A DNA stretch of 64,000 nt from a bacterium (GTDB lineage Bacteria; Zixibacteria; MSB-5A5; GN15; FEB-12). Each line of letters starts with the position of its first letter. Position 1 is the stretch's first letter. Of the stretch, positions 224 to 60,981 are shown piece by piece. Under the pieces are notes generated by a model. It did not search any database and was not told the DNA's origin. It worked only from the letters and a program-made list of their open reading frames with translations. The stretch lies in contig JBDRNJ010000072.1 of assembly GCA_043811375.1 (NCBI GenBank), forward strand, positions 1 through 64,000. Direction: 5' to 3'. Both the position numbers and the translations under genes were made by a program.

Positions 224-505
224 CTATAGTTGTCTGCGAATCAACCGGAACCGGGAACGCCTCGACAGCAGTCGCCTTTTTCTCAGGAGAGAGAATACCT
301 CCCACCAACTCACGGGAGCGACTTTTGAGAACCGGTTGGCCGCCCGTTTCATCTCCATGATCGTGGCAAAGGGGTCCTGCTGTACCAGTTGCAGGATGAT
401 GGTTTCCAGATCGGCGGTGGTCGGATCAACCGACTCCTCGGCCGGTAGTTGCTGTCGGCCAGAGGCAACCGCCACCTCCGGTTGATTCATGTTAACAACC
501 GTCAA
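224..505 (-). CDS. Small protein with a helical, basic, HTH-like C-terminal domain; probably the -1 frame extension of the upstream STAS gene
   Basis: LETIILQLVQQDPFATIMEM...VSWWEVFSLLRKRRL. TTG start without an obvious RBS. The frame stays open back through the A10 tract of the STAS gene. Confidence 0.6.
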   Translation of the reverse strand: MTVVNMNQPEVAVASGRQQLPAEESVDPTTADLETIILQLVQQDPFATIMEMKRAANRFSKVAPVSWWEVFSLLRKRRLLSRRSRFRLIRRQL

Positions 506-510
506 GTTGG

Positions 511-897
511 TTACCGATCTTTTTTTTTTGCCGTGGTACCGCCGGAGTTCAGGAAATCATCTCGAGCCTCGTCCACCGAACGGTACACCCTGAGAACTTT
601 GTCGAACTCCAGCAGTTCGTAGATCTCGTAAACGTTGCTGACCATGTTGGCCAGTTTGATGTCACCGCCATTGGCACGGATATCCCTGATATGTGATATG
701 AAAATCCCCCAGCCGGCAGAAGAGATATAATCCACTCCGGCCAGGTCCAGGACCATGCTGTAACGTTCCCGTTTCAACAGGGAATCGATGACTTCTTCCA
801 ACTCTGAAGCCGTAGTGGTGTCGATAACACCGTCAACACGCACCTCGGAGACCTTGTCCTGTTCGCTTTCCGCCAATGAGATTGATATGTTTTCCAT
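511..897 (-). CDS. STAS-domain anti-sigma factor antagonist (RsbV/SpoIIAA family)
   Basis: DGVIDTTTA...VLDLAGVDYISSAGWG retains the phosphorylatable Ser motif; also VYEIYELLEFDKV. Confidence 0.93.
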   Translation of the reverse strand: MENISISLAESEQDKVSEVRVDGVIDTTTASELEEVIDSLLKRERYSMVLDLAGVDYISSAGWGIFISHIRDIRANGGDIKLANMVSNVYEIYELLEFDKVLRVYRSVDEARDDFLNSGGTTAKKKDR

Positions 898-939
898 GTC
901 GCGATCAGTGCCGGGGTTAGAAACTATATCTATGGGATT

Positions 940-968
940 ATATTAACACCATTGCGGAGCGAAGGCAA
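940..968 (-). promoter_or_regulatory. Putative sigma70 promoter for the STAS gene
   Basis: Minus strand TTGCCT-N17-TAATAT with a TG extended -10, in the 88 bp intergenic gap. Confidence 0.4.
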
Positions 969-985
969 CAAAAAGATTGGAGCTG

Positions 986-3037
986 TCAACTACTTTGACG
1001 CCGCTTGGAATGGCTGCTCCCGACACCCCTGGTCTCGACACCGGTGGCGGACGGAGCGGCAGTCCGAGTGCCCGAGGAGACCTTCGCCGTTTGGACTCGC
1101 GCCACGATGAAAGTGAGGTCATCAGCCGGCTTGACAAAACCAGAGAAATCATCAAGCCGACTGACAATAGCTTTGCTGATGGTGGTGATTTTATGCCGGT
1201 GTAATATCTCGGCAGTAAACAACTGAGTCAGACGGTCCAGGCCGTACTGCTGTCCCTCCCGGTTGATCGTTTCGGTGATGCCGTCCGTGAATATCAGGAA
1301 AGCGTCGTCATCCTGGAGCGTAAATTTGGCTTCCTCCAGTCTTTCCTCAAAGCTCGTCCCCAGAGTCGTCGGCATACCCAGCGGCATTCCGGCCGGATTG
1401 ACCGGCGTCACTTCGTCCCCGGCAGCCCGGTACAGAAGCATCGGGTTGTGACCGGCCGAAACACAGTTCAGTTGACGCTCCGAGCTTTCGTAGATAGCCA
1501 GCATGACGGTGATAAACATTCCGGGCGGGATGTTTTCCTTGAAGTAGTCATTTACCTTGATCAGGATATCCCGAGCCGACACGGCGTTGGCGGCCTGTAT
1601 CTGTATAACCGTGCGCAGCATGGTCATCACCAGCGCGGCCGGCACACCCTTGCCGGAGACATCAGCCACCGCGATGCAGTAACGCTGGGGACCGGTGGCA
1701 AAAACATCGTAAAGATCGCCGCCGACGGTTGCCGCTGCTCGATAGTAGGCATCCAACTGAAGTCCCGGCACATCCGGCAATTGACGCGGCAGCAGGGTTT
1801 TCTGTATCTGGGAAGCCACTTCAATTTCCCGGGTCATTTTCTCTCGAGCAATGATGTTTTTACGGTCACGACTGAGGCGCGTCATAATCTCGTTGAATGC
1901 CTTCGAGATTTCAAAGAACTCCTCGGCTCCTTCCAGGGGCAATTCAGTTTCTAGATCGCCCGAAGCAAACCGTCGCACTCGTCGGGTGATTTTAACTATG
2001 GGTCGGACAAAGTAGTTCGACAGAAAGTAGGTCCCCAAAATACCGAACACCAGCAGGACCAGTATCAGAATAGCTATCTGCAAACGAGCGCGGGCCAGTT
2101 TGTCGTCGATCTCGGATGAAGAATAAGTGATATGCACCAGTCCGATCTGCCTGTCGCTGCTGCCTATGGGCGTGATCAGGTAGCTGCGTTGCCGGCTATC
2201 GTCGGGAAACCGATGGATATAGCGGGTTGAGTTGACATCCACAAAATCAGGCGCCTGATAGCGTTTACGGATATTGTGAATGTCTTCGGAATGGGCCAGA
2301 ATCAACCCGGCCGAATCGGTCAGCACGATCAACTGCAGCTCGGGATTGGATTGCATATAGCTGACAATCAGTTCGTCGAATTCAACGTCCGAACGGCGGT
2401 TGAGAATGTACCCGGCGGCCTGAGCGGCAACCGTCTGAGCCAGGGAATTAACGGTGTCATCCAGGTGACCATAGATATAGCGCGTGGTGCGATGATCGAT
2501 ATAGTAGAAAGCCACCCCGATAATAATCGACATAATCAGGAAGGTCCACACGGAGAACTTCATCCGCAGCGTCAGCAGCCGGCGCAGGAACGGGCGGCCT
2601 TCCGTACGAACTCCCTTTATCCGCTTGATCATGCGCAGTTCATTGAACCCCGCCGCCGAGATGTATTCCACCGAATCCATGATCTTCTGGATCATGTAGA
2701 ATCCCAGACCGCCTTTGCGACCCGAGGCCACCAACCGCTGAAGATCAATCCGTCCGGCGCCTTCCGCCTGAAAAGAACGGCCGGCATCAATCAGGGAGAA
2801 CACCAGCAATTTTCGGTAGACAACAATGCGCAGGCGGATGGTCCCCTTCTCGTACAGGTAGGCGTGGCGGATGATATTGGTAGCCCCTTCCTCAATGGCC
2901 AGCAGGACGGCGGTTATGTCACGGCGTGACATTCCGGCCGCGACGCAGCTTTCGCGAGCCGTACGCTGAATACTGTCGAGATACTTCTCTTCGGCAATAA
3001 ATTCGGCGTTGACTTCTTTTATCGGGCGACGAAACAT
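986..3037 (-). CDS. Membrane-bound fusion: RsbW-like Ser kinase (HATPase), 2 TM segments with periplasmic domain, HAMP, and SpoIIE/PP2C phosphatase
   Basis: N-terminal LAIEEGATNIIRHAY, DAG and GRKGGLG boxes; two hydrophobic segments; HAMP (RPIVKIT...EFFEISKAFNEI); PP2C motifs VGGDLYD, IAVADVSGKG, FTDGITE, DDLT. ATG at 3037 preferred over TTG at 3064. Confidence 0.9.
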   Translation of the reverse strand: MFRRPIKEVNAEFIAEEKYLDSIQRTARESCVAAGMSRRDITAVLLAIEEGATNIIRHAYLYEKGTIRLRIVVYRKLLVFSLIDAGRSFQAEGAGRIDLQRLVASGRKGGLGFYMIQKIMDSVEYISAAGFNELRMIKRIKGVRTEGRPFLRRLLTLRMKFSVWTFLIMSIIIGVAFYYIDHRTTRYIYGHLDDTVNSLAQTVAAQAAGYILNRRSDVEFDELIVSYMQSNPELQLIVLTDSAGLILAHSEDIHNIRKRYQAPDFVDVNSTRYIHRFPDDSRQRSYLITPIGSSDRQIGLVHITYSSSEIDDKLARARLQIAILILVLLVFGILGTYFLSNYFVRPIVKITRRVRRFASGDLETELPLEGAEEFFEISKAFNEIMTRLSRDRKNIIAREKMTREIEVASQIQKTLLPRQLPDVPGLQLDAYYRAAATVGGDLYDVFATGPQRYCIAVADVSGKGVPAALVMTMLRTVIQIQAANAVSARDILIKVNDYFKENIPPGMFITVMLAIYESSERQLNCVSAGHNPMLLYRAAGDEVTPVNPAGMPLGMPTTLGTSFEERLEEAKFTLQDDDAFLIFTDGITETINREGQQYGLDRLTQLFTAEILHRHKITTISKAIVSRLDDFSGFVKPADDLTFIVARVQTAKVSSGTRTAAPSATGVETRGVGSSHSKRRQSS

Positions 3038-3099
3038 TTGTACAATAGTAGTTTTGCCCGGCACCGGAATTCAACTAAAACGATGCGGCCGGCAAGTAA

Positions 3100-4932
3100 T
3101 CACTCAGATTTCTGCGACTGAAGTCGCAGCCGGGCCTGTTCCAGATTATCCCTGGTGCTGGTGCTGTTGGGGTATGCTTGCAGGACTTTTTCCCAGGCCT
3201 CAATCGCCTTCTGGTATTCCTTGTTGCGCATGTGGCGCAAACCCTCGAGGTACAGAGGCCAGACAGTCTTGTCTTTCTGAATTTCTTCCAATACGGGTGA
3301 CTGAGCCAGAGCCTGATCAATCCTGCGCAGGTATTCGGTGGCTATCGGCTCAGACGGATCAGCGGTCAGGACAGCCTGGAAATGTCGGCGTGACCGGACG
3401 TATTCTCCCTCCCGGTAGAGTTCCATGGCCCGGTTAAGCTGCTGGGCCATATCGAGATTCCGGGCTGTGCGTTGCCTGGCCTGGAGCGCCTCGACATGCG
3501 AGGAATCAAGTTCCAGAATCCTCGAATAGGACTCGATAGCCGTCAGGTACTGACCGTTACGCTCGGCAGCCTGGCCGATGTCAAGATTGTGCGCAATTTC
3601 AGACCTGACAGTATCTTCAATAGCGTCTTTAAGTGTCCGCGCCGACTTGTGTTCCGGCTCGATGTCCAGAACCAACTGCAGCATGTCCAGTGCAGCGGCA
3701 TAGTTATGTTTGGAAAGGAAACTGCGAGCCTGGCGAAGATGGTTATCGGCATTGCGGTTCAATTCTCGCTGCGTTTCCACCATCATCTGCTCGCGCTGGA
3801 GCAGAATCCGCCGGGCGTTTTCTATGCCTGTGATAGTGCCGATGATCTTCTGGTTACCTTCGTCGTGGGCCAGTGCTCGCTGGTAGTATGTCAGAGCGGA
3901 ATCCAGTTGGAACTGCCGGTAAAAGGCATCAGCCTTATCTCGGTAGAACACGAACTGGCGGAGCCGTTCGTCAGCCAGCAACTCCGAACCGCGGCGCTTA
4001 TCCTCCTGTTGCCGCCGGTTTCGGCGCTCATCCAGCGAGGAACCGATGAGGAATGACAACGAGAAGCGGTGGCTGTCATTAACGTATCCCAGTACCTTAT
4101 AGGCGTAGTCTATTTTCAATCGTCGGTGCTTGAGACCGGCGCCAAACGAGAAGTTGTCGCGATTGTACCCGGTTCTCAGGGAGTAACATTCGTCAAAGGA
4201 AATTTCCGCACCGGCGTGCACACGAGTGGCTCGTTTCTCGATCTTTTCGAGTTCAAACGAGCCGCTCAAGTCGATCCGGTTCGACAGACGCAACTGCTTG
4301 ATACCCAGTCCGCCGGTTACCGTCAACGGGGTTATCTCGTTTGTCCCTTCCAGTTTCAGCGAGGGAGGAATCATGTCCCGTATCATGATGCCGGCGATAA
4401 GTTGCCGACTCAGGTCGGCCGTCATGCCAAAATCCAGTCCGGCGCCGTAGTCAGAGTAGACATCGAGCTTCTGATTGACCACTTTGATACCCACCCCCAT
4501 TGCCAGACCGCCACGCAGGCGGCGGCCGTACGACAGCAGCATTTGCCAGGTTCCATAATCAAAGCTGCCGGTCTTGACAAAGCCAGAACGACGAGTGATA
4601 TCATCAACACCTACGCGCATGTATGCCAGTCCCACTCCACCATGATTCAGGAGGGGATATGCCCAACCGGCATAATCACTGGAGGCTCCTTCCAGCAAGA
4701 GCATACGCGACAACGATACCTCCTGATACCGCAGTGCCGCCAGTCCGGCCGGATTATAAAAGATAGCCGACGCATCATCGGCCAGCGACGTAAATCCGCC
4801 CCCCATCGCCAGCGACCGTGCTGAGACACCGACAGCAAATGGAGATTCATGTCCGGCGTCACCGGCTACCGCGACACCGGCCAGCCACAGAACCGCCATC
4901 ACTACCGAGAGGATGTTACGTCCGGGCAGCAT
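3100..4932 (-). CDS. PorV/PorQ-like outer-membrane beta-barrel with C-terminal TPR repeats
   Basis: Signal peptide; GVSARSLAMGG...DDASAIFYNPAGLA (FadL/PorV N-terminal motif); barrel ends in IDYAY...SHRFSL; then a coiled region and several TPR-like helices. Confidence 0.85.
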   Translation of the reverse strand: MLPGRNILSVVMAVLWLAGVAVAGDAGHESPFAVGVSARSLAMGGGFTSLADDASAIFYNPAGLAALRYQEVSLSRMLLLEGASSDYAGWAYPLLNHGGVGLAYMRVGVDDITRRSGFVKTGSFDYGTWQMLLSYGRRLRGGLAMGVGIKVVNQKLDVYSDYGAGLDFGMTADLSRQLIAGIMIRDMIPPSLKLEGTNEITPLTVTGGLGIKQLRLSNRIDLSGSFELEKIEKRATRVHAGAEISFDECYSLRTGYNRDNFSFGAGLKHRRLKIDYAYKVLGYVNDSHRFSLSFLIGSSLDERRNRRQQEDKRRGSELLADERLRQFVFYRDKADAFYRQFQLDSALTYYQRALAHDEGNQKIIGTITGIENARRILLQREQMMVETQRELNRNADNHLRQARSFLSKHNYAAALDMLQLVLDIEPEHKSARTLKDAIEDTVRSEIAHNLDIGQAAERNGQYLTAIESYSRILELDSSHVEALQARQRTARNLDMAQQLNRAMELYREGEYVRSRRHFQAVLTADPSEPIATEYLRRIDQALAQSPVLEEIQKDKTVWPLYLEGLRHMRNKEYQKAIEAWEKVLQAYPNSTSTRDNLEQARLRLQSQKSE

Positions 4933-7900
4933 CAGTGCACCACCGCTACTTTCGTCCGAGCCGTCTCACCGGTACGAACCAGTCTGACGACCGCGACATA
5001 TACACCATTCAATACTTCATAACCGGCATCGTTACGACCATCCCAGGTGACTTCATTCTCACCCAGCGTTGCCCCCGGCCCGCCAGCCGGCAGGTCTTGA
5101 GAATAAACCTCTTCCCCGCTGAGAGTAAATATTCTGAATTCCACCGGCGACAACTCGAGCAGTTCATAGGCAAAACGCAGGGGACCGTGCTCCGGATGGA
5201 AAGGATTGTTCTCCATTACGAACGATTCCTGCAGCCCGGCGCCGCGAGTCGAGTAGACCCGGGAAATGAGTTGCTCCCTCCCGTCGGGGGAGGTAACTGC
5301 TACCGGCTGTCCCGCCGCCGGGCCGTCGGCAAAACGCGCCGTTATATGATGACGTTCGAGTTCGATTCGGAACAATGACGGTACGGTTGTCGTGAAAGTC
5401 GCCACAAAGGCAATTGTCCGTTCCTGCAGAGGTTCGATCACGAAATCGGAAAAGACCATCCTCAAGACGGCTCCGTCAGCCGACGAGGTCGTTACCAACT
5501 GATCCTGCTCATAGCAGCCGGTTTTCGCCGGATCAACTAACTGTCCCACGTCAAGGAGTGCCCCGGTACCGCTCCTGAATACAATTTCAATTTCTTCCAC
5601 ACGGATGGCTGCCGCCGAGGTGCCGCCGAGGTTAGCCAGCCGGAGGCTGAACAATTCCCTGCTGCTGCCGGGGGAAATTAGATTGGAACCGGTTATCTCC
5701 GGATGAACATATAAATCAGCCGACAACGAAGCCACCTGCAGAGTGAAGGCAATAGACGTGTCGGATAGTATCGCCGGAAGGTTGGTGTTGGAGTCAACCG
5801 GCAGGTCGACAAGTGTGAAAACAAAGTTGGCCGTCGTGTCCACCAGCGGCGCCCGGAACAGAAAAATTTTATAAAGACCGGCCTCAATGGTCCCAATCAG
5901 CGGGTCTTCGATACCGAAATCGACACCACCCGTGGTCAGGCGAAAAGTCCCGACCGAAACGCCGGCCTGACCGGTATTGTGCATCTCCATAGTAAGATCA
6001 AAATCGTCCCCCTGGCCGACCAGACCGTTGGTCACCCCATGCAGCGCATAAGCCAGTTCGAGCCGGGCGGGAGTCTGTATCGTCACCAGGGCGAAATCGT
6101 CCAGCGGCTGTTCCTGTGTGACCTGGAGCGATGGGATGCTGACCCGGAATATCTCAGCGGCATTCGGCACCGGCGATGCTTCCACATCGAAGCGGGCCGT
6201 CAATGTATCGTAGGGGTCAATACCGGCTACTCCCAGTATCGGGTCAAACAGCGAGGAACCGTTAGTACTGAGATATAGATCGAATGGACCGATGACGGCG
6301 GCTGAGGTGAGATTGGCCAGCCGACATTCTATCTGAAATTGCTGACCGGTGTTCACCTTCGGCGCGTTGGGCGCCACCACCTCGACCTGGATAATTTTCA
6401 CTTCCGGCGGAGTCACTACCGACAGAGTTTCACCGGAGAAATCGGTCTCGAAAACAACCGTGTCGCCGGTGCCGGGAACGGTCAGATAGAGTGTCGCGGA
6501 GGCACGCAGGTCCACACCCAACTGGTCGGCAGGAATGAATACAGCCTCCGTTTCCATCAGATTCGCCCCCGAGTACAGTGAATCAATCGCTCCGACCAGA
6601 TTGGTGGCTACGGCAAAGCCGTCACCATCAAGGCGAAAACGAGTCTGCTCGATATTGATACCCAGAGGAAAATCATTGTCCAATTGCAGAAGAAACTCAA
6701 ACGATGCCGGCTCCCCGGCGTAAACGATGGTTGGAGACAGTGAACTGTCGACATAGCTAAGCTCGACGTTCACCAGCAGGAATAGAGAATCGGCGAAGGG
6801 GGTCGTTAACTGGAATTGCTGAGATCCGGAAGTCAGTCTATAGTCCATTATGACCGGGTACCAGCCGGGTCGCAGTCCGTTTGGGTCCGCAAACTGTATG
6901 GAAAGGTCACGGTACTTGATTACACTGCCGTCAAAAGAGTCGAAATTGACCGTACCATCGAAAAAGACCACATCGTCTCCATAAGGATTGACTACAGTCA
7001 GCTTCAGTGACGTCTGGTCAATCGGTCCGGTAAAAGCATCGGCGGCAACATCAAACGACAGGGCAAAGAGCTCTCCCGGCCAAACGGTGTCGGTTACGAA
7101 GGAACTAGCCACAACCTCAAACGACGGGGCCGAAATAACTGCAACAGTAATTTCTCTCCGGTCGGATGTCGTCAGCATTTGCCCGCCGATAGTGTACCCG
7201 GCACTCAATTCAACCGACAACACCACCTCTGTGAGACTCGCATCGAGAGCCGGCAGGTCCAGGTCAACGGTGTCGACAGCTCCGTGTGAATCCGGTTGGA
7301 AAGTAGCCGTCACCGTGTCATCCCCGGGCAGCAATATGACGGTAATGGTCGGCTCCCGGTCGGCCTGGTGCCGCCCGTTGTTCTGCACCACTACTCGAAC
7401 AGGATTTGTCTGGTAGGAACAGACCTGGCTGACGGGCTGTCCGGAAGTGTCGATAACGGCGATTATGTCATAGCCGCTAAAAGAGACTTCTGCCGGTTCC
7501 GAGATGATGTCACCAACAACGGCGCTGATCATCGCCACCGCCGAGCGCCCCTGGTAGGTCACTCCCAGCGGAAGCAGGTCGACAGCTCCCTCGTTCAGAT
7601 GAGCCGACTGGTCGATCAGGTTCGGGGTCAGCAAACCCTTATCAATGGTCAACAGAATCGGCTCCGTCTGAAGATCATGGTTGGTTCTCCGGTTTCCGAA
7701 GCGGTCGAAGAGGGTAATCCCGGCTGATCCCATCAGAGGATGTCCAACCACCTGATCGGGCTCGATAGCCAGAGCCAGCGACGCCAATTCTGCGGGAACT
7801 ACAGCAAACTCCTGCGAAGGGGCGGGGCCAGCTATCAATCTGCCCCGCTTGCTGAGTGCCAGTCCGTTCAGGTGATACTCGGTCGCAACAGTCGAATTCC

Positions 7901-8384
7901 CGATTACCTTCAGCCTGAGCTCTACCGTAACCGGCCAGGTGGCGGCCGCCGAGTCGGGACGAGGTCCGTCGTTACCGTGGCTTGTACGAAGAAAAATCGT
8001 CAGCAGGTTACCGTCGACCTCATAATGGTGAACTCGAAAGCTGAAATGGGGGCGTCCGTCGGAGATTTTTATCGAATCCAGAAGGCTAAGGTCAAAGCCA
8101 TCAGGGAACTCAAAAACCAGGCTGCCACCATGCAGAGCAAACAGGACCAGGGGAGGCAACCGGAAGCTGAGGAGATATTCGGAACTGTTACCGGCGATGG
8201 TGTCACCCGGGAATACAACAAAACTATCCAGGGGAACAAGACAACTTGAGTCAGAGAAGAAAATGTCAGGGCTGATATCCTGATCCGATACCTCCAACTG
8301 CTCGACGGAACTGACTGTGCCTATGGTGAAAACACCAAGAAAGACAGCAAGTCCCGTGATCCGAACAAACTTCGTAAATCTCAT
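4932..8384 (-). CDS. Large acidic, beta-rich secreted protein with a C-terminal FlgD-Ig/T9SS-like sorting domain
   Basis: Signal peptide; Ig-like composition; C-terminal NNPFHP...FRIFTLSGEEV...TWDGRNDAG...NGVY...KVAVVH. Its stop overlaps the start of the barrel gene. Confidence 0.8.
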   Translation of the reverse strand: MRFTKFVRITGLAVFLGVFTIGTVSSVEQLEVSDQDISPDIFFSDSSCLVPLDSFVVFPGDTIAGNSSEYLLSFRLPPLVLFALHGGSLVFEFPDGFDLSLLDSIKISDGRPHFSFRVHHYEVDGNLLTIFLRTSHGNDGPRPDSAAATWPVTVELRLKVIGNSTVATEYHLNGLALSKRGRLIAGPAPSQEFAVVPAELASLALAIEPDQVVGHPLMGSAGITLFDRFGNRRTNHDLQTEPILLTIDKGLLTPNLIDQSAHLNEGAVDLLPLGVTYQGRSAVAMISAVVGDIISEPAEVSFSGYDIIAVIDTSGQPVSQVCSYQTNPVRVVVQNNGRHQADREPTITVILLPGDDTVTATFQPDSHGAVDTVDLDLPALDASLTEVVLSVELSAGYTIGGQMLTTSDRREITVAVISAPSFEVVASSFVTDTVWPGELFALSFDVAADAFTGPIDQTSLKLTVVNPYGDDVVFFDGTVNFDSFDGSVIKYRDLSIQFADPNGLRPGWYPVIMDYRLTSGSQQFQLTTPFADSLFLLVNVELSYVDSSLSPTIVYAGEPASFEFLLQLDNDFPLGINIEQTRFRLDGDGFAVATNLVGAIDSLYSGANLMETEAVFIPADQLGVDLRASATLYLTVPGTGDTVVFETDFSGETLSVVTPPEVKIIQVEVVAPNAPKVNTGQQFQIECRLANLTSAAVIGPFDLYLSTNGSSLFDPILGVAGIDPYDTLTARFDVEASPVPNAAEIFRVSIPSLQVTQEQPLDDFALVTIQTPARLELAYALHGVTNGLVGQGDDFDLTMEMHNTGQAGVSVGTFRLTTGGVDFGIEDPLIGTIEAGLYKIFLFRAPLVDTTANFVFTLVDLPVDSNTNLPAILSDTSIAFTLQVASLSADLYVHPEITGSNLISPGSSRELFSLRLANLGGTSAAAIRVEEIEIVFRSGTGALLDVGQLVDPAKTGCYEQDQLVTTSSADGAVLRMVFSDFVIEPLQERTIAFVATFTTTVPSLFRIELERHHITARFADGPAAGQPVAVTSPDGREQLISRVYSTRGAGLQESFVMENNPFHPEHGPLRFAYELLELSPVEFRIFTLSGEEVYSQDLPAGGPGATLGENEVTWDGRNDAGYEVLNGVYVAVVRLVRTGETARTKVAVVH

Positions 8385-8438
8385 CGAACAGTAGTAACCC
8401 TGTTTTCAGGATAAGTATAACCAATCTGGTACAGAAGC

Positions 8439-8454
8439 AGCAAAGATAGTGCCC
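8439..8454 (-). promoter_or_regulatory. Putative sigma54 (-24/-12) promoter for the secreted protein/barrel/partner-switch operon
   Basis: Minus strand GGGCACTATCTTTGCT: GG-N10-GC with GGCAC and TTGCT, about 55 bp upstream of the ATG. Confidence 0.6.
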
Positions 8455-8763: not shown

Positions 8764-9648
8764 CTAAGGGGAAATACTTTTTTCAGCAGCCGTTACCGTA
8801 TTGGACATCAACATGGCAATCGTCATCGGCCCGACGCCTCCGGGAACGGGAGTAATGAAGGCGGCCTTCTCAACGCAGGCATCAAAATCGACATCGCCCA
8901 CCAAACGGTATCCCTTCGGTGAGGAGTCGTCATCGACACGATTTACACCAACGTCGATAATCACCGAACCGGTCTTGATCATGTCCGCCGTTATAGTCAT
9001 CGGTCGACCGACGGCGGCAATCAAAATATCGGCCCGGCGGGTAATGTCCGGCAGATTATTCGACCGGGAATGAGCCACAGTCACGGTGGCATTGGCCATC
9101 GGAGCTTTTTGCATCAACATGGCCGCCAGCGGTTTGCCTACTATATTGGAGCGGCCGACAATGACTGCCTCGCGCCCGGAAGGGTCAATATCATAATGTT
9201 CCAGCAGCTTGATGATCCCATGCGGAGTGCACGGAAGCAGACCGGGACGGCCGATCAGCATCAACCCGACATTGTGCGGGTGAAATCCATCGACGTCCTT
9301 ATGAGGTAAGATAGTAAGTGTTACGGCCTCTTCGTCCATGTGTGACGGCAGCGGCGACTGAATCAGGATACCGTGTATCTGTGGGTTTTGATTTAATGAT
9401 GTAACGATATCAACCAACTCCGTCTGGGTGAGATCGGCCGGTTTCCTGATCACTTCCGAATGCAGTTCCAGTTTCCCGCACATCTTGATTTTGCTGTTGA
9501 CGTAGGTGGCCGAGGCGGGATCGTCGCCCACCAGCACCGCTGCCAGTCCCGGGATCACTCCCCTCTCTTTAAGAGACGCGATTCGGGGCTTGAGTCCGAT
9601 TCGTACTGTTTTCGCAACTTCCTTACCGTTAATGAGTTGTGCAATCAT
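8764..9648 (-). CDS. folD: Bifunctional methylenetetrahydrofolate dehydrogenase/cyclohydrolase
   Basis: KDVDGFHP, PCTP, GRSNIVGKP and TPVPGGVGPMTIAML motifs. Confidence 0.98.
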   Translation of the reverse strand: MIAQLINGKEVAKTVRIGLKPRIASLKERGVIPGLAAVLVGDDPASATYVNSKIKMCGKLELHSEVIRKPADLTQTELVDIVTSLNQNPQIHGILIQSPLPSHMDEEAVTLTILPHKDVDGFHPHNVGLMLIGRPGLLPCTPHGIIKLLEHYDIDPSGREAVIVGRSNIVGKPLAAMLMQKAPMANATVTVAHSRSNNLPDITRRADILIAAVGRPMTITADMIKTGSVIIDVGVNRVDDDSSPKGYRLVGDVDFDACVEKAAFITPVPGGVGPMTIAMLMSNTVTAAEKSISP

Positions 9649-9662
9649 TCTCAAGTATTTCT

Positions 9663-10490
9663 TTATATTTCGGGGGTGGTGGTGTCAGCCCTGAAATTCT
9701 CCGAGTCAAAATCCTCCCGGAAGCGTTCGATATGGTGTGCCCGGCCGTCGTCCGGATTGATCTTTAATATCACTCCGGATATCTTGATGTCCCCTCCGGC
9801 GGTGGTGAAACGTTTCGGCATACCGGTGAGAAACCGCTGCAGCGAGGGTTCCTTTTCCATTCCGATAATCGAATCATGGGCTCCGGTCATACCGGCGTCG
9901 CTAATATAAGCGGTCCCGCGACGGGAGATGCATTCGTCGGCGGTCTGTACATGGGTATGAGTGCCGATAATAGCCGAGACCTTGCCGTCCAGATGGTACA
10001 GCATGGCCTGTTTCTCCGAAGTAGCTTCTCCATGGAAGTCGACCACAATGATTTCCGTCTCCTTGCTCAGTGTGACCAGTTCCCGGTCGGCCACCTGGAA
10101 GGGACAGTCGATATCCTTCATATAGACCCGTCCCATCAGATTGAGGGTGGCGATTTTCCAGTTACCGATTTTCTCGACATAGGCGCCGGTGCCGGGCGCC
10201 CGGGAGGGATAATTGGCCGGTCGCAGCAGCTTGGGTCTATCGTCGAAGAACCTGACAATGTCGTAACGATCCCAGATGTGGTTGCCTGAAGTCTGAATAT
10301 CGATCCCATAGGAAAAGATTTTGCGGCACATCTCCGGTGTAATACCGAAGCCTCCGGCGGCATTTTCCACGTTGGCGATGACATAGTCGGCGGCATGTTT
10401 TCCCCGCAACGGTTTGATCATATGAGCCGTTGCCTGTCGCCCTGCTTTGCCGCAGATGTCGGCCACAAAAAGTATCGTTATCAGATCCAT
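9663..10490 (-). CDS. ymdB: YmdB-family metallophosphoesterase
   Basis: ANVENAAGG, TSGNHIWD, RPANYP, DFHGEATSEK, GTHTHVQTAD; directly downstream of rny. Start may be 10505. Confidence 0.93.
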   Translation of the reverse strand: MDLITILFVADICGKAGRQATAHMIKPLRGKHAADYVIANVENAAGGFGITPEMCRKIFSYGIDIQTSGNHIWDRYDIVRFFDDRPKLLRPANYPSRAPGTGAYVEKIGNWKIATLNLMGRVYMKDIDCPFQVADRELVTLSKETEIIVVDFHGEATSEKQAMLYHLDGKVSAIIGTHTHVQTADECISRRGTAYISDAGMTGAHDSIIGMEKEPSLQRFLTGMPKRFTTAGGDIKISGVILKINPDDGRAHHIERFREDFDSENFRADTTTPEI

Positions 10491-10532
10491 CAGGTCGGTC
10501 TCCAACTCGAGGGAGCAATCATCCCCATGGCG

Positions 10533-12098
10533 TCACTTGGCATATTCCGTGGCGCGTATCTCACGGACGACCGTCACTTTCACCTGCCCGGGGTACTGCA
10601 TTTCCTTTTCGATCTTCTCAGCAATGTCACCGGCCAGGACGGAACTGGCCAGATCGTCCAGGATCCGGTTTTCAACGATCACGCGCACTTCGCGGCCGGC
10701 CTGGATAGCGTACGCTTTGGACACACCTTTGAAGCTGTCGGCCAGTTCTTCCAGTTGCTGCAGACGTTTGATGTAAGCCTCGAGCGGTTCCCGCCGGGCT
10801 CCCGGACGAGCGCCGGAGATGGCATCAGCCGCCTGCACCAGAACCGGATAGGGACCGATCATGGGAACGTCGCCATGGTGAGCCTCGATGGCATTGATGA
10901 CTACCTCGCTCTCCTTAAAGCGTCGCATGAAGTCGGCGCCGATTTGAGTGTGAGTTCCCTCGGTTTCGCGATCAATAGCTTTTCCAACGTCATGCAACAG
11001 ACCACAGCGCTTGGCCAGCGCCCCGTCGAGTTCCAGTTCAGCCGCCATCAGACCGCACAGCATGGCCACTTCTTTGCAGTGGGCCAGCACGTTCTGACCG
11101 TAGGAGGTGCGGAAATGCAGCTTGCCCAGCATATTGACGATGTCGGCGTGCAAACCGTGGACTCCCAGTTCAAAACAGGCCTGCTCACCAGCCTCGCGGA
11201 CAATTACCTCCATCTCCTTGCCGGCTTTCTCGACGGCTTCCTCGATACGGGTAGGGTGAATGCGGCCGTCGGCAACCAGCTTCTCCAGTGCCATACGACC
11301 AATTTCACGCCGTACCGGGTCGTAGCCGGACAGAATAACCGCTTCCGGGGTATCATCAACAATCACGTCGATGCCGGTGGCCGTCTCAAAGGCTCGTATA
11401 TTACGGCCCTCACGGCCAATAATGCGGCCCTTCATTTCGTCGCCGGGAAGGTTGACCACGGAGACGGTCGACTCCACCGTATGATCGGCGGCACAGCGAT
11501 AGATCGATGAGATAATGATCTCCTTGGCTTCTTTGTCGGCGTCCCGCACAGACTGGTCCCTTATCTCCTTGATATAGGCGGCTGCTTCCACCTTGGCCGC
11601 ATTGACCATATTCTCCATCAGTTGTTTTTTGGCTTCTTCGGGGGTCATCTGGGCGATGCGTTGCAGCTTTTCATTCTGACTGCGGATAACCTCTTCCAGT
11701 TCCTCCTCTCGAAGAGTGATCCCCTTCTCACGCGTCTGTATGGATTTTTCGCGTCCAGCCATTTCGCGGTCACGATCCTGCAGGAAATCCAGCTTCTTTT
11801 CCGTGGAAGCTTGTCTCTCCTGAAGTCTCTTTTCGTCAGACTCCAGTTGGCGGCGTTTCTTTTCAGCCTCCCGTTCGACTTCACCTTTCCTCCGGAGCCA
11901 TTCCTCACGGGCTTCAAGGGTAGCTTCCTTTTTTCTAAGTTGGGCATCCTTTTTGGCCTCTTCCACCAGCCGGGTAGCTTCCTTTGCAGCGCCGCTCAAC
12001 CTGCGACTGGAAAGGCTGCGGGCCAGATACCAGGAGAGTAAGAATGATACCAGACCAACGACAATTGCTATCAGAATAAATATGACCAGATCATCCAT
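10533..12098 (-). CDS. rny: Ribonuclease Y
   Basis: N-terminal TM, coiled coil, KH domain (MKGRIIGREGRNIR) and HD domain (LLHDVGKA). GGAGG RBS precedes the ATG at 12098. Confidence 0.98.
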   Translation of the reverse strand: MDDLVIFILIAIVVGLVSFLLSWYLARSLSSRRLSGAAKEATRLVEEAKKDAQLRKKEATLEAREEWLRRKGEVEREAEKKRRQLESDEKRLQERQASTEKKLDFLQDRDREMAGREKSIQTREKGITLREEELEEVIRSQNEKLQRIAQMTPEEAKKQLMENMVNAAKVEAAAYIKEIRDQSVRDADKEAKEIIISSIYRCAADHTVESTVSVVNLPGDEMKGRIIGREGRNIRAFETATGIDVIVDDTPEAVILSGYDPVRREIGRMALEKLVADGRIHPTRIEEAVEKAGKEMEVIVREAGEQACFELGVHGLHADIVNMLGKLHFRTSYGQNVLAHCKEVAMLCGLMAAELELDGALAKRCGLLHDVGKAIDRETEGTHTQIGADFMRRFKESEVVINAIEAHHGDVPMIGPYPVLVQAADAISGARPGARREPLEAYIKRLQQLEELADSFKGVSKAYAIQAGREVRVIVENRILDDLASSVLAGDIAEKIEKEMQYPGQVKVTVVREIRATEYAK

Positions 12099-12189
12099 AG
12101 TGTCCTCCCATCCGACTAAAAATGCCGGATGCAGCATTTATGTGAAAACGCCGGAATAAAAAGACACCGAGCCTGAAAACGGCGATCCG

Positions 12190-12498
12190 TCAGGAACCGA
12201 CCGGCTCGTCGGCCAGGGCATCGTTGAGATTGGCCAGGACTCTATCCAGTGCTGAGTGAGCGTCTTGCTGAGCCGGATCGTCCAGTTCGGACTTCTCCAG
12301 CAGTTCGGATGCAATTGACATCGCTGCCAGAATAGCCACCTTGTCACGAGCCTGAATGCGGCCGACCCGGGCAGCTTCGTTCATCTTTGAATCGACATAT
12401 TCGGCGACGCGCACAATATGGGCAGGATCGTTTACCCCGGTAATGGGATAATCCTCGCCAAATATATGTACTACAACCTTGTTTTCATCAACACTCAC
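12190..12498 (-). CDS. zapA: Cell division protein ZapA
   Basis: V-x-IFGEDY...VAEYVDSKM...AILAAMSIASEL; conserved pheT-zapA-rny synteny. Confidence 0.9.
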   Translation of the reverse strand: MSVDENKVVVHIFGEDYPITGVNDPAHIVRVAEYVDSKMNEAARVGRIQARDKVAILAAMSIASELLEKSELDDPAQQDAHSALDRVLANLNDALADEPVGS

Positions 12499-12561
12499 AG
12501 ATGTCCGTCCCTATAACAGATACCAACGCCTGTGTCTTCTTATCCTGCTAACTTGTAACAA

Positions 12562-12590
12562 CTTATAAAGGCCGGCGAGCCTGTTGTCAA
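12562..12590 (-). promoter_or_regulatory. Sigma70 promoter for zapA-rny-ymdB-folD
   Basis: Minus strand TTGACA-N17-TATAAG. Confidence 0.65.
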
Positions 12591-12599
12591 CAAAAAAAC

Positions 12600-12845
12600 T
12601 CACCGGTGCAATTCCTCCAACTCATCCAGTTTGCTCATGACCGTCAGCAATCGACCCTTGAACTCCTCGGCTCGGTCACGGTGGTCAAGCTTCAATTGGC
12701 GATACTCCTTACTGATACCGGTCAGTTCGGCTTTCAGCGCTGCGTTCTCCTTTTTCAGAGTCGCCTTTTCGCGCTTAATCCGCTCCAGAAGGTCCAGTAC
12801 CTTCTCAGCTTTTTCAACCAATGATTCAAGTTTACCCGGCATCAC
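12600..12845 (-). CDS. ZapB-like coiled-coil protein
   Basis: About 80 aa, all coiled coil, between pheT and zapA. Confidence 0.7.
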   Translation of the reverse strand: MMPGKLESLVEKAEKVLDLLERIKREKATLKKENAALKAELTGISKEYRQLKLDHRDRAEEFKGRLLTVMSKLDELEELHR

Positions 12846-15229
12846 TATTTATCCCTGATCTCAGCATTAAACATTTTCTTCAGGGAGTCAACCACTTTCT
12901 GCTGCAACTCATCAACTTGTTCGCTTGATAGACTGCCCCGGCGTGAGCGGTAGACTATATTGACCGCCACTGATTTCAGTCCTTTCTCGATCTGCTCGCC
13001 GCAATAGACATCAAAAATCCGCACCGACTCGGCCGGATCGCCGGCCGCTTTTTTAACGGCAGCCACCAGTTCCCCGGCGCGCACCCCGGCAGCCACCAGT
13101 ATCGCCAAGTCGCGGGGCGCCGCGGGATACTGAGCCAGCGGTACAAACCGTATTGACTTACGGCCGTCGCGACTGAGACAGTCGAGTTCGATTTCAGCCA
13201 GGAAGACCGGCTGGTCTATATCGAGTTTATCAAGCAGCGCTGATGCCACCCGGCCGACGACACCGCAGGTTTGACCCTTCGACGAGACGCAGAAGGAAGT
13301 GGCGCGGTCAAGACAGGCTGCCTCACCCGGTTCGAAGCTGAAAGGCGGCCAGCGGAAATGATCGACCAGACGCTCGAGTCCACCCGTAACATCATAGAAA
13401 TCAAGTTTTCGCGGCTGTTGTCTCCAGCCGCTGGAAGTGGCGCCGGTAACGGCCAGCAATACCCGCAGCTTCTCCCGCCACCGGTCCTGTTCGTCCGGGG
13501 GAAAATAGACCTTGCCGACCTCAAACAGGCGCAAGTCGAGATTCCGGTGGGCGATATTATGTTTGATTACCGACAGGGCCGCCGGTATCAGCGAATTACG
13601 CACGATGTCAAGCTCCCGGGAAACCGAGTTAACCAGGCGCAATTGCGGTTCGTCCGGATTGACCTGCCGGCTCAGACCGCTCTCGGCCAGACCGTGACCC
13701 AGCATCTCGTCGAATCCGGCGCCGGTCAGAGTCCGCCGAAGGTCATTCAGGAAAACGTCAAGTTCGTGCCGGGGGGCATACAACGGACCGATATTGGTCA
13801 CCGCATCGGGAATGTTATCGTAACCTTCAATCCGGGCTACTTCCTCAATCAGGTCAATTTCGCGCCCTATATCCGGCCGGAAAGCAGGCACCGTCACCTG
13901 CAGCGGATCGGTGTCTTCCACGGTGAACTCAAGCCCGGTGAATATCTTTTTCATGCGTTCGCGTGAAATATCGGTACCCAGTACCTTGTTGCACCGTCCG
14001 GGACGAAAATCCACACGGACAGGTTCAATTTTTTTCGGGTAACAGTCGACCATACCCTGAAGCACTTCTCCCCCGCACAACTCCTGCAGGAGGAAAGCGG
14101 CCCGGTCGATAGCAAAAGGAATCCCGTTGGGGTCGGCGCCTTTCTCGAATCGCATCGATGATTCCGACACGGTTTCCAATCGGCGACGGCTTTTGCGAAT
14201 CACGGAGGGGTCGAAATAAGCGGCTTCCAGCAGCAACTCGGAAGTGCTGTCGTCAACCTCTGATTCCAGCCCACCCATAACACCGGCTGCCGCAACCGGC
14301 GCCTGGCCGTTGGTTATCAGCAGAACCTCGGGTGTCAATTCATGCTCACAGCCGTCGAGGGTTGTGAACTTCTCGCCCGACGTGGCCCGCCTTACGACTA
14401 CCTCGCGAGAACCAAAGCGGTCCAGGTCGAAGGCGTGCAGCGGGTGGCCGGTTTCCAGCATGACCAGGTTGGTGATATCGACCACGTTGGAGATCGGTCG
14501 AACTCCCGACATCAGCAGTTTCTTCTTCACCCACCAGGGTGACGGCGCCACCTTGGTGTTGCGAATCAGACGGGCGGCATAGCGGGGGCAGCCGTGAGGA
14601 TCTTCAGTGGTGACGGTGATATACTCGGCAGTCTTCTGCGATGACTCTCGCAGAGCGACCTCCGGCCGTCGTAAGGTGGTTCCGGCCAGGGCCGCCATGT
14701 CCCGTGCGATTCCTATGGCCGACATGGAATCGGCCCGGTTGGGAGTCAACTCAAAAGTAAGCATGTAGTCATGGAAATCAAGATACTCGACCAGCGGCGT
14801 CCCGACCGGGGCGTCATCATCAAGAACCAGGATTCCCGAATGATCCTGAGAAATTCCCAGTTCCCGCTCCGAGCAGATCATCGCCTGCGACTCAACTCCT
14901 CGAATACGGGTCTTTTTCATCTCAAAGCCCTCGGCCAGCCGGGTGCCGATCAGCGCCGCCGGGACTTTTTGACCGATAGCTACGTTGGGCGCACCACAGA
15001 CACTGTCAAGCGATTCGTTACCGATGTTCACTCGCGCCAGCCTGATCCTGGTGGCTCCCTCGATCGGCAGCAGATCGACAACTTCGCCGACGACCACCTT
15101 ATCCATGTAGCGATCAGCAGCTATGACCTCTTCGCAGGCCGTGCCGCACATGGTCAGTCTGCGTTCGGTTTCTTCAACCGACCAGTCCAGTCCGGTCAGC
15201 TCCTTCAACCAGTTGAACGATACTTTCAT
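12845..15229 (-). CDS. pheT: Phenylalanyl-tRNA synthetase beta subunit
   Basis: MKVSFNWLKE, VCGAPNV, ELTPNRAD, RFEKG, DLIEEVARIEGY and the C-terminal anticodon-binding domain. Confidence 0.98.
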   Translation of the reverse strand: MKVSFNWLKELTGLDWSVEETERRLTMCGTACEEVIAADRYMDKVVVGEVVDLLPIEGATRIRLARVNIGNESLDSVCGAPNVAIGQKVPAALIGTRLAEGFEMKKTRIRGVESQAMICSERELGISQDHSGILVLDDDAPVGTPLVEYLDFHDYMLTFELTPNRADSMSAIGIARDMAALAGTTLRRPEVALRESSQKTAEYITVTTEDPHGCPRYAARLIRNTKVAPSPWWVKKKLLMSGVRPISNVVDITNLVMLETGHPLHAFDLDRFGSREVVVRRATSGEKFTTLDGCEHELTPEVLLITNGQAPVAAAGVMGGLESEVDDSTSELLLEAAYFDPSVIRKSRRRLETVSESSMRFEKGADPNGIPFAIDRAAFLLQELCGGEVLQGMVDCYPKKIEPVRVDFRPGRCNKVLGTDISRERMKKIFTGLEFTVEDTDPLQVTVPAFRPDIGREIDLIEEVARIEGYDNIPDAVTNIGPLYAPRHELDVFLNDLRRTLTGAGFDEMLGHGLAESGLSRQVNPDEPQLRLVNSVSRELDIVRNSLIPAALSVIKHNIAHRNLDLRLFEVGKVYFPPDEQDRWREKLRVLLAVTGATSSGWRQQPRKLDFYDVTGGLERLVDHFRWPPFSFEPGEAACLDRATSFCVSSKGQTCGVVGRVASALLDKLDIDQPVFLAEIELDCLSRDGRKSIRFVPLAQYPAAPRDLAILVAAGVRAGELVAAVKKAAGDPAESVRIFDVYCGEQIEKGLKSVAVNIVYRSRRGSLSSEQVDELQQKVVDSLKKMFNAEIRDK

Positions 15230-15231
15230 GA

Positions 15232-16245
15232 CTATTCAAACTGCCTCAGGAAACGGACATTGCTATTGAAAAGCAGGCGGATATCGTCAATCCTATATTT
15301 AAGCATGGCAATTCGTTCCACCCCGATACCGAAGGCATAGCCGGTATAACGCTCGGGGTCATGCCCGGTTTTTTCAAGAACGGCGGGGTCAATCATGCCG
15401 CAGCCGAGAATTTCCAACCAGCCGGAGTGCTTGCACAATTGACAGCCTTCCCCCCGGCAGAGGAAACACTGTATATCGACTTCCACCGAAGGTTCGGTGA
15501 AGGGGAAATAGGAAGGACGAAACTTCAACTTTAGTCTCTCTCCGAAGAAGGACCGACAAAAAGCTACCAGGGCGCCCTTGAGGTCGGACATTGTCACCCC
15601 TTCATCGACCAGAAAACCATCGACCTGGTAAAACGAAATGTGTGACCGGGTGGAGATAGCCTCGTTGCGAAAACAGCGACCCGGTGTAATGATCTTGATG
15701 GGCGGTTTCCGTTTCTCAAGTTCGCGGGCCTGTACCGGAGTGGTGTGCGTCCGCATCAGGCGGCCACCTTCCACAAAAAGAGTATCCTGCATATCACGGG
15801 CGGGATGGTCAGGCGGGAAATTGAGAGCTTCGAAATTGTAGTAGTCGGTCTCAATGTCCGGACCGTAGGCAATCTCAAAGCCCATACCATAGAAAGTTAC
15901 GCACATCTCGTCAATGACCTGGTTGAGAATATGCACCACGCCGATACGCTGAGCGGTCCCCGGCAAAGTGGGGTCGAGACCGGCGGACTCCTGCCCGGCG
16001 GCAAGCCGTATTTGAGCCTGCTTAAGTTGCTGTTCTATGGCAGTCCGGCACTTGTTGGCTGCAGCTCCGACAGCTTTACGTTCTTCGAGCGAGAACTCCC
16101 TGAGGGACTTCAGGACTGCGGTGACTGAGCCTTTACGACCCAGATAAGCGACGCGCAGGTCATTGAGTGACTGAAGTGAATCGGCCTGATCTATTTGCTG
16201 CAGCGCCTCCTGCTGGATCTGCTCAACCTTTTGAGGAAGCGACAT
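15232..16245 (-). CDS. pheS: Phenylalanyl-tRNA synthetase alpha subunit
   Basis: HPARDMQDT, RTHTTPVQ, FPFTEPS, GYAFGIGVERIAML. Confidence 0.98.
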   Translation of the reverse strand: MSLPQKVEQIQQEALQQIDQADSLQSLNDLRVAYLGRKGSVTAVLKSLREFSLEERKAVGAAANKCRTAIEQQLKQAQIRLAAGQESAGLDPTLPGTAQRIGVVHILNQVIDEMCVTFYGMGFEIAYGPDIETDYYNFEALNFPPDHPARDMQDTLFVEGGRLMRTHTTPVQARELEKRKPPIKIITPGRCFRNEAISTRSHISFYQVDGFLVDEGVTMSDLKGALVAFCRSFFGERLKLKFRPSYFPFTEPSVEVDIQCFLCRGEGCQLCKHSGWLEILGCGMIDPAVLEKTGHDPERYTGYAFGIGVERIAMLKYRIDDIRLLFNSNVRFLRQFE

Positions 16246-57834: not shown

Positions 57835-58233
57835 TCAATCGTCTCCGTCAAACCCAGTTTCCTTTTCCTGAACCTTGGTTTGAATGACCTTGTAAAGTTT
57901 GTTGATATTGAAGGGTTTGGTAATGTAGTCCGTAACCCGGCAGCGCAGAGCCGTTACAGCCGAGTCGACCGACGGGTAGCCGGTCATCAGGACCACCGGT
58001 ATGTCGGGATATGACTGTTGCATTTCGCTGGTCAGTGTTAATCCGTCCATCTGTGGCATCCTGATGTCGGTCAGGACAAGGTCAATCTTTCTTGATTGCA
58101 GTATCTGGAGAGCTTTTTCGCCGTCTTCAGCGATAGCGATATCCCAGCCGTGTCCGTGAAAGAAATCATACAGCAAGTCTCGGATCAACAGCTCATCATC
58201 CACAACAAGTATCGAGGGTGTATTCAATGTCAT
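57835..58233 (-). CDS. Single-domain response regulator
   Basis: VVDDE, TDIRMP, MTGY, YITKPF; ATGA overlap with the HEAT gene. Confidence 0.9.
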   Translation of the reverse strand: MTLNTPSILVVDDELLIRDLLYDFFHGHGWDIAIAEDGEKALQILQSRKIDLVLTDIRMPQMDGLTLTSEMQQSYPDIPVVLMTGYPSVDSAVTALRCRVTDYITKPFNINKLYKVIQTKVQEKETGFDGDD

Positions 58234-60134: not shown

Positions 60135-60175
60135 ATATCAACCCCTTGTCTGTCAATTGATCAGGCACACCGGGA

Positions 60176-60538: not shown

Positions 60539-60544
60539 ATTCAG

Positions 60545-60979: not shown

Positions 60980-60981
60980 GA

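Follow-up and report, generated by a model that had tools for sequence, protein, structure and literature searches.

The 64-kb stretch of DNA analysed here (the window) opens contig JBDRNJ010000072.1 (contig C72) of the Zixibacteria assembly GCA_043811375.1, a genome of 3.56 Mb that is 95% complete. Near its start lies a gene cluster that we read, with a probability of roughly 0.55, as a relay across the cell envelope, in which an outer-membrane barrel would hold a cargo protein, a tetratricopeptide repeat (TPR) arm of that barrel would bind the Cache domain of an inner-membrane kinase-phosphatase (KP), and the contact would set the phosphorylation of a STAS protein, alone or joined to a helix-turn-helix (HTH) domain; the direction of the signal, its ligand and the output we infer. 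A first-pass annotation had proposed four consecutive co-directional genes, and all four were found in the list of open reading frames (ORFs), on the minus strand and where it had placed them. They encode the cargo (8384-4932; 1150 aa), with a signal-peptide-like N-terminus, a chain of immunoglobulin (Ig)-like beta-sandwiches and an atypical type IX secretion system (T9SS)-type C-terminal domain (CTD); a barrel-TPR protein (4932-3100; 610 aa), which combines a PorV-family barrel with a helical/TPR arm; the KP (3064-986; 692 aa), in which an RsbW-type serine kinase, a transmembrane (TM) segment, a periplasmic sCache domain, a second TM segment, HAMP and a PP2C phosphatase follow one another; and a STAS protein of the RsbV/SypA type (897-511; 128 aa). 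The translational coupling proposed for the first two is in keeping with the sequence, the stop of the cargo gene and the ATG of the barrel gene sharing one base (TGATG). The true start of KP is likely to be the ATG at 3037, where its relatives begin. A fifth conserved ORF (505-224, minus strand), HTH-like and absent from the first-pass annotation, adjoins the STAS gene across a run of ten A and corresponds to the C-terminal half of STAS-HTH.

The third protein had been described as a two-TM RsbW-kinase/HAMP/PP2C fusion with a periplasmic sensor, and each part of that description was recovered. Profile searches placed HATPase_c_2 at 24-147 and sCache_3_2, the periplasmic domain, at 205-325, followed by HAMP and SpoIIE, with hydrophobic segments at 164-182 and 330-348. 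Across 106 sequences, residues E59, N63, D93, G95, GGLG118-121, D450, D468, D594 and D648/649 are kept in 98% or more. The fourth protein matched the STAS profile, as expected, and contains an invariant YISSAGWG with S59/S60. The serine kinase residues, the PP2C metal ligands and the STAS serine, that is the parts of an RsbW/RsbU/RsbV partner switch, are all intact, and to that extent the proposal that STAS phosphorylation is the output is supported, although the output in this phylum probably reaches beyond STAS. No alternative sigma factor was recognised beside KP or STAS in the mapped loci, whose neighbours were annotated in part, and a distant partner is conceivable.

That the TPRs contact the periplasmic domain of the sensor is supported along three partly independent lines, namely gene adjacency, a model of the complex and covariation. 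A model of the C-terminal 226 residues of the barrel protein in complex with KP 186-332, built from our own alignments, reached a score of 0.66, whereas the best of three controls had 0.00; the 0.66 mark is reached by 116/157 solved and 2/215 mismatched pairs, a benchmark that is only roughly applicable because our own alignments were fed to the model. Runs shared at least 84% of their contacts, and the pLDDT of the partners did not fall below 79. The predicted interface sets the TPR tip (~548-600) on the membrane-distal SDVEFDE loop of the sensor (225-234) and on residues 262-266, and interface residues are above average in conservation (p 0.00015 and 0.006, with columns taken as independent). 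By mutual information R569-D230, which lies inside the predicted interface, ranked first of 33,222 inter-protein pairs, and six of the 20 top covarying pairs joined interface to interface where 0.09 were expected. The two positions are R/D in 81 of 105 rows, Q/A in 8 and Q/S in 5, with exceptions of Q/D (2) and R/Y (1). Binding of the TPR arm to the Cache domain of KP, which the first-pass annotation had anticipated, is thus what the modelling predicts.

The barrel protein scored 109.9 bits against the PorV family profile NF033709 (cut-off 90), with TPR matches in addition, and 24.2 bits against the equivalog for PorV proper, NF033710 (cut-off 250). Its AlphaFold2 (AF2) model (pLDDT 90.3, pTM 0.58) comprises a barrel at residues ~30-297 with a conserved NPA plug, 14 wall strands at 70-296 as read from its secondary structure, and helices from the last strand to residue 609, which form a helical/TPR arm (300-609) whose tip (545-606) is conserved. 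An even number of strands places the C-terminal tail of a barrel on the periplasmic side, and with 14 strands the TPR tail is therefore expected there; this side had been assumed from the outset and is also indicated by stand-alone TPR proteins with signal-peptide-like N-termini. The best folds were PorV chains 8gl6_F and 6h3i_F, with FadL folds third and below. A FadL-like importer that passes a hydrophobic substrate along the TPRs to the Cache domain would suit those lower-ranking folds and the conserved plug, and has a parallel in TP0548, TP0859 and TP0865 of Treponema pallidum, 14-stranded NPA-plug barrels with periplasmic helical/TPR tails which the available text of PMC8407342 proposes as nutrient importers, with neither CTD cargo nor a link to a phospho-switch appearing there. 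Such an importer is nevertheless very improbable, since PorV is the better match by both profile and fold, and the gene abuts that of a CTD protein and decays once the latter is lost. Within family f1 the barrel is 50% identical to that of the window in the 41 loci with cargo and 26-28% in six without, whereas KP is 61-63% identical whether or not cargo is kept; the TPR tip is 43% identical in cargo-less loci with a decayed barrel, compared with 62% where cargo is present. The claim that the barrel displays its cognate cargo thus gains indirect support from the adjacent or overlapping genes and from this decay, but CTD-barrel covariation (63 pairs, effective number 50) gave nothing clear, the top pairs being scattered and including periplasmic turns. 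Barrels with TPR tails also look similar to Atlas clusters of several phyla.

KP was detected in 234/285 genomes of the phylum. The neighbourhood was mapped in 80 genomes, 40 from the order of the window and 40 from other orders, kin among them not being independent; 79 had enough upstream and 77 enough downstream DNA. A TPR-bearing gene lies directly upstream of KP in 78/79 genomes, a barrel in 66/79 and cargo in 64/79 (36/39 in the order, 28/40 in the others). STAS lies within 1.4 kb of KP in 56/77 and a cyclase within 3.5 kb also in 56/77, a count from which shorter cyclases such as that of locus L065 dropped out below the score limit. The linkage of cargo and barrel with KP and STAS is supported over the class and also by loci from beyond it. 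Among metagenomic loci six of 80 contained a full-length KP, with a barrel-TPR gene directly upstream in all six and a CTD cargo in four of the five with sufficient flank; the sole taxon-named locus of the six is L186. One of the other 74, L190, was mapped, and there kinase and phosphatase are split and no barrel is present. The KP architecture forms many 50% clusters outside the phylum, the few that are named being Krumholzibacteria and Calditrichia, and in Krumholzibacteria-named proteins KP and STAS occur in one chain; some KP outside the phylum are fused to two or three STAS domains. Named KP relatives are mostly Zixibacteria, with other labels on some records, and in protein searches Zixibacteria fill the matches listed (at least 120). 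A long KP relative gave no plasmid match.

The genes upstream of the cluster differ between orders, and as the linkage is kept despite this it is therefore not merely a matter of gene-order inertia. Two unrelated modules that are neighbours by chance might be suspected from the flanking housekeeping order, which is likewise conserved within the order, from the internal promoter-like sites and from genome G246, where the modules are unlinked. That reading is scarcely credible when the linkage persists across differing flanks, losses are nested, the complex model and covariation join the two modules, and in family f7 overlapping stop/start junctions run all the way from cargo through STAS.

Natural deletions are informative about which parts belong together. 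In 12/79 genomes, from at least two separate lineages of the KP tree, a stand-alone TPR gene precedes KP and both cargo and barrel are gone; the stand-alone proteins displayed have signal-peptide-like N-termini, and 15 of 16 genomes from these lineages lack any cargo match. At six further loci a decayed barrel remains and cargo is missing, and on the KP tree (FastTree, midpoint root) cargo was lost at least three times. Loss of the T9SS was ruled out as the cause, SprA being present in 33/33 genomes tested. In lineages without KP neither the TPR tip (0/39 genomes) nor cargo (0/39) was found, SprA was present in 16/16 genomes tested and a STAS orthologue was not found in 13/16; the searches for absence scored 12-48 candidates in each genome, and not all of the genomes are complete. 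Two genomes, G019 and G270, have a TPR tip at a contig end and no KP match. With cargo lost and TPR and KP kept, the sensor pair must therefore be able to work without cargo. It could be argued that the working unit is the TPR with KP, a periplasmic modulator resembling YfiR, with barrel and cargo a tether or merely co-regulated and no signal crossing the outer membrane; the 12 genomes above and a sigma70-like site of its own before KP speak for this. We judge it unlikely, however, as the TPR is fused to a barrel in 66/79 genomes and in 6/6 loci outside the phylum, and no cargo was found in the 39 KP-less genomes, within the candidates scored.

A number of observations weigh against the relay favoured here. 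Cargo has been lost in at least three lineages in which TPR and KP persist; it is thus dispensable there, and outside-in signalling is therefore not the sole possible job of the cluster. In genome G246 cargo-barrel and KP are on separate contigs. STAS lies within 1.4 kb of KP in no more than 56/77 genomes and is unlinked in four families; in family f3 (five loci) it stands away from the cyclase, behind an NtrC-like gene, and genome G083 has STAS, cyclase and wza in a row with no KP match. No cyclase or wza was found in the three metagenome loci showing a downstream STAS, and a cyclase/polysaccharide output is therefore lineage-specific at best. Sigma70-like sites before KP, STAS and the cyclase, together with hairpin-T runs located after the barrel gene of some relatives, point to separate transcripts. 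The complex model and the covariation are not independent, the model having been given the same alignments, and R569-D230 drops to rank 2890 when the order is taken by itself; its source is the other orders, so that few events, at deep splits, lie behind the signal.

The cargo itself is poorly matched by known proteins. Its N-terminus is hydrophobic and signal-peptide-like, as judged by hydropathy alone, and its AF2 model (pLDDT 88.3, pTM 0.44) is almost wholly beta, a chain of beta-sandwiches for which Foldseek returned only tandem-Ig proteins at a query TM of 0.15 or less. No specific homologue was found by sequence or fold search, the matches being weak ones to Ig, S-layer and FlgD proteins and the tandem-Ig folds. 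The CTD-like tail attributed to it carries T9SS-type motifs (NPF..P, WDG, GVY, K.AVV) and matches the C-termini of PorU/PorZ and FlgD_ig weakly, but it is atypical: FlgD_ig at 1081-1133 scored 25.2 bits, under the cut-off of 27, and the cargo is absent from the 36 TIGR04183 matches of its genome, one relative scoring 21.3 against a cut-off of 23. It ends in K.AVV, the common CTD type of the genome being RKMLLLK, and two other proteins of the genome with a similar ending also directly precede PorV paralogues. PorV-like barrels directly follow atypical K.AVI-type CTD proteins at C8:14394-18134, C6:67313-71967 and C21:62240-69013.

As to the secretion system, SprA and PorU were over cut-off in the genome of the window, as were 35 type A CTD matches. 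GldL, GldM and GldN gave no match there or in any control genome, and GldK was not searched for, so that the expectation of T9SS core genes held for sprA and porU and for gldL/M/N drew a blank that the controls share. With SprA in 33/33 Zixibacteria tested and GldL/M/N undetected in the genome of the window, the T9SS here is possibly motor-less or divergent. A 955-aa barrel-like ORF follows porU.

The same anatomy could serve a secretion monitor that reads barrel occupancy, cargo export or a periplasmic CTD, and adjusts the production of adhesin and polysaccharide without regard to an outside cue. No ligand-binding or enzymatic domain could be recognised in the cargo, and the available text of PMC12152298 offers a precedent in PorA with PorY. 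However, the predicted contact is made by the barrel arm and not by the CTD, and across relatives the cargo ranges in length from ~850 to 2600 aa and varies at its N-terminus, which is what a surface probe or adhesin would be expected to show. A monitor of this kind is improbable on balance.

Under the relay, the T9SS-secreted Ig-chain protein would be held at the surface by its own PorV-family barrel, whose periplasmic TPR arm would bind the Cache domain of KP. The arm may then be moved by load, by the binding of a ligand or simply by cargo occupying the barrel, HAMP would flip KP between kinase and phosphatase, and the contact of arm and Cache would set the phosphorylation state of STAS(-HTH). 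In the Zixibacteria unphosphorylated STAS might turn on a GAF-GGDEF cyclase and Wza/Wzc export, as SiaC does with SiaD, and a STAS-HTH made by slippage may add a DNA-binding output. The block downstream of the cluster in this phylum consists of a TM-GAF-GGDEF cyclase, Wza, a chain-length protein, a TPR protein, a tyrosine autokinase and a polysaccharide deacetylase, and the cyclases have GG(D/E)EF and RxxD intact. In the genome of the window the GAF-GGDEF, wza and wzc block starts near the end of contig C48. The ends of C48 and C72 both carry a multi-copy repeat (1-160 of the window, no strand), presumably IS30-like, which separates the cluster from that block, and the adjacency of cluster and cyclase in this genome is therefore inferred. 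Similar multi-copy, insertion-sequence-like repeats with REP-like palindromes occur at many contig ends. Where STAS(-HTH) has been relocated it is still beside the cyclase in 13/18 loci, the other five being family f3 (L164-L168), where STAS-HTH follows the NtrC-like regulator and is itself followed by a 1245-aa CTD protein. Beyond STAS, a diguanylate cyclase with polysaccharide export, or the STAS-linked HTH, is the probable output in the phylum.

The HTH is fused to STAS in 45 of 86 sequences. In the window the two halves are separated at an A10 run at the end of STAS (520-529, minus strand), a likely slippage site from which the -1 frame is open into the HTH ORF. A run of A9-11 is present in 30/30 STAS genes of families f1 and f4, 19 of them frame-split and 11 in frame, and 45 other genes are in-frame fusions that lack a run of eight or more; runs of ten or more number six in the whole 3.56-Mb genome. 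The pattern makes it likely that two products, STAS and STAS-HTH, are obtained from one gene by slippage at the A10, although homopolymer errors may bear on which copies are in frame. That the run is an assembly error confined to the genome of the window was ruled out by the 30/30 in two families, and the small ORF is not spurious, being conserved and fused to STAS elsewhere. HTH_Tnp_Tc3_2 matched 25/61 HTH members weakly, and an HTH profile run against the PDB gave no significant match (best E 0.096).

In families f5, f9, f16 and f17 and in L186, KP itself ends in a paired transposase-like HTH and is followed by a ParA/Soj ATPase. From this the reverse direction could be proposed, an inside-out or positioning device in which KP, its HTH tail and the ATPase place or release the adhesin-barrel and STAS phosphorylation times the event. 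This is decidedly unlikely, as tail and ParA are absent from the order of the window, where all other parts persist. The loci with the paired tail are L124-L141, L162, L163 and L186, the ParA/Soj gene overlapping that of KP in most, and by eye the STAS HTH looks like the second HTH of the pair.

The first-pass annotation had placed the cluster behind a sigma54-like promoter as a single operon, and this was upheld only in part. A GG-N10-GC motif of the -24/-12 type lies at 8440-8454 (minus strand), 55 nt before the ATG of the cargo, and rpoN is present in the genome. As a single site it does not exceed chance, the window holding 65 matches at two mismatches where 60 are expected, but GGCAY-N5-TTGC precedes the cargo gene in 33/36 genomes of the order, against a background of ~0.008 per 420 nt. 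It is specific to the order, with 0/25 genomes of other orders having it before cargo, and of 75 sigma54 matches listed genome-wide none immediately precedes the cyclase or wza on C48. Within the flagellar/chemotaxis region of the window, 49672-52358 encodes a sigma54-dependent response regulator and kinase, a candidate activator for sigma54 promoters.

Sigma70-like sites were scored with an approximate matrix, and expected counts came from shuffles. The window has TTGAAT-18-TACTAT at 3045-3074, 7 nt before the ATG at 3037 and a possible leaderless KP promoter, and TTGCCT-17-TAATAT at 940-968 before STAS, both on the minus strand; TTGACA-17-TATATT stands just before the cyclase gene on C48. 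Across loci a site occurred at the leaderless position before KP in 28/80 (7.1 expected), before STAS at 9 bits or more in 13/56 (3.5 expected) and before the cyclase in 29/56 (3.2 expected). The score was also raised before cargo (15/60, 3.8 expected) and was not enriched before folD and ymdB; a generic promoter/terminator scan stayed at chance level. With these internal sites, and with STAS unlinked in four families, a cluster with several promoters seems likelier than one transcript, despite the overlapping junctions of family f7.

Among described systems the closest are SypE/SypA and SiaABCD. SypE of Vibrio fischeri is soluble, with an N-terminal serine kinase, a REC domain at its centre and a phosphatase at the C-terminus (PMC10120452, PMC3610818). 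The available text on it shares with the window a kinase and phosphatase in one chain, a STAS substrate as output, no sigma factor shown and a polysaccharide locus alongside (PMC10120452, PMC3610818; review PMC8256260). KP departs from the kinase-REC-phosphatase order in having TM-sCache-TM-HAMP in place of REC, and from the system as there described in its upstream barrel-TPR partner and STAS-HTH substrate. SiaABCD of Pseudomonas aeruginosa, in the accessible parts of PMC7647112 and PMC8457831, combines a two-TM HAMP-PP2C sensor, an opposing kinase and a small switch protein beside a diguanylate cyclase. SiaA is the best NCBIfam match of KP at 81.6 bits, far under the cut-off of 700, and a relative's cyclase scored 139 against SiaD (cut-off 290); the cluster has neither the SiaA/SiaD equivalogs nor a separate kinase nor a Thr-phosphorylated SiaC. 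In KP the kinase and phosphatase are fused, the switch is a serine STAS and not SiaC T68, the cyclase is TM-GAF-GGDEF, and there is a barrel where siaABCD, in the text available, has no outer-membrane component (PMC7647112). The joint relocation of STAS and cyclase, with cyclase motifs intact, would by analogy resemble SiaC-SiaD and SypE-SypA.

PorV and PorP/SprF are described in the available text of PMC5562754 and PMC12618676 as shuttles with cognate T9SS cargo. The window resembles them in a 14-stranded PorV-family barrel (PDB 6H3I_F, 8GL6_F) beside a CTD protein, with SprA and PorU in the genome, and differs in a 310-residue TPR arm predicted to bind an inner-membrane sensor, an atypical CTD and GldL/M/N undetected as in the controls. 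By analogy the cargo-barrel pair may work like such shuttles. In PorA-PorY/PorX-SigP, too, T9SS cargo feeds an inner-membrane sensor, but according to the available text the CTD there binds a histidine kinase in the periplasm, whereas here the barrel arm is predicted on a Ser kinase/phosphatase (PMC12152298). YfiBNR, in the descriptions available, is alike in that a component of the outer membrane, by contact in the periplasm, controls a signalling protein of the inner membrane and in ending in cyclic di-GMP (c-di-GMP); its outer-membrane and periplasmic parts have no homologue here, and in the window cluster a serine partner switch stands between sensor and output. TonB-dependent cell-surface signalling (FecA-FecR-FecI) also has an outer-membrane part that controls an inner-membrane protein through a periplasmic contact. 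By contrast the window cluster has no homologue of its outer-membrane or periplasmic part, is without an extracytoplasmic function (ECF) sigma factor and has the intervening serine partner switch; profile searches found no TonB-dependent receptor, anti-sigma factor or ECF sigma factor domain in the five window genes.

No description of a barrel-TPR/KP/STAS system was found in the literature searched, in which subscription journals are thinly covered, in agreement with the initial impression that the chain had not been described. We rate the cluster as trans-envelope signalling that joins known parts in a way not yet described. It is conceivable, at somewhat less than even odds, that it represents a distinct surface-signalling class, in which a T9SS shuttle-type barrel is the receptor, a giant Ig-chain adhesin stands outside, a TPR arm directly switches a one-chain Ser kinase/phosphatase and slippage yields a dual STAS/STAS-HTH output, spread over Zixibacteria, Krumholzibacteriota, Calditrichota and probably further phyla.

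The surroundings of the cluster may be briefly noted. On its upstream side, at 8764-16245 and 12190-12600 (minus strand), are the housekeeping genes pheST-zapB-zapA-rny-ymdB-folD, conserved within the order. A flagellar/chemotaxis region occupies ~19959-57762 (minus strand), with fliD (781 aa), flagellin (726 aa), flgKL, flgI, fliI, fliF and a motB-like gene. At 58230-62280 (minus strand) a second partner-switch set, comprising a PP2C of 432 aa, an RsbW-size ORF of 171 aa and a STAS of 120 aa, heads a chemotaxis cluster with cheR, cheA and cheB. Elsewhere in the genome (C53:5161-6591), and recurring in many genomes of relatives, is a paralogue with the TM-Cache-HAMP region of KP and without the kinase.

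PorV-family barrels are known as shuttles or anchors, and a link to an inner-membrane sensor, if true, would add a signalling role. It would also provide an input for switches of the SypE/SiaA type, whose natural signals are poorly known. R569-D230 offers a predicted residue-level interface that is testable with two soluble domains although the organism is uncultured, and the series of losses found in nature (full, barrel without cargo, TPR only, nothing) provides comparisons ready made. If the relay is real, it would act upstream of both c-di-GMP and polysaccharide export as a surface-sensing mechanism, in phyla that have been little studied.

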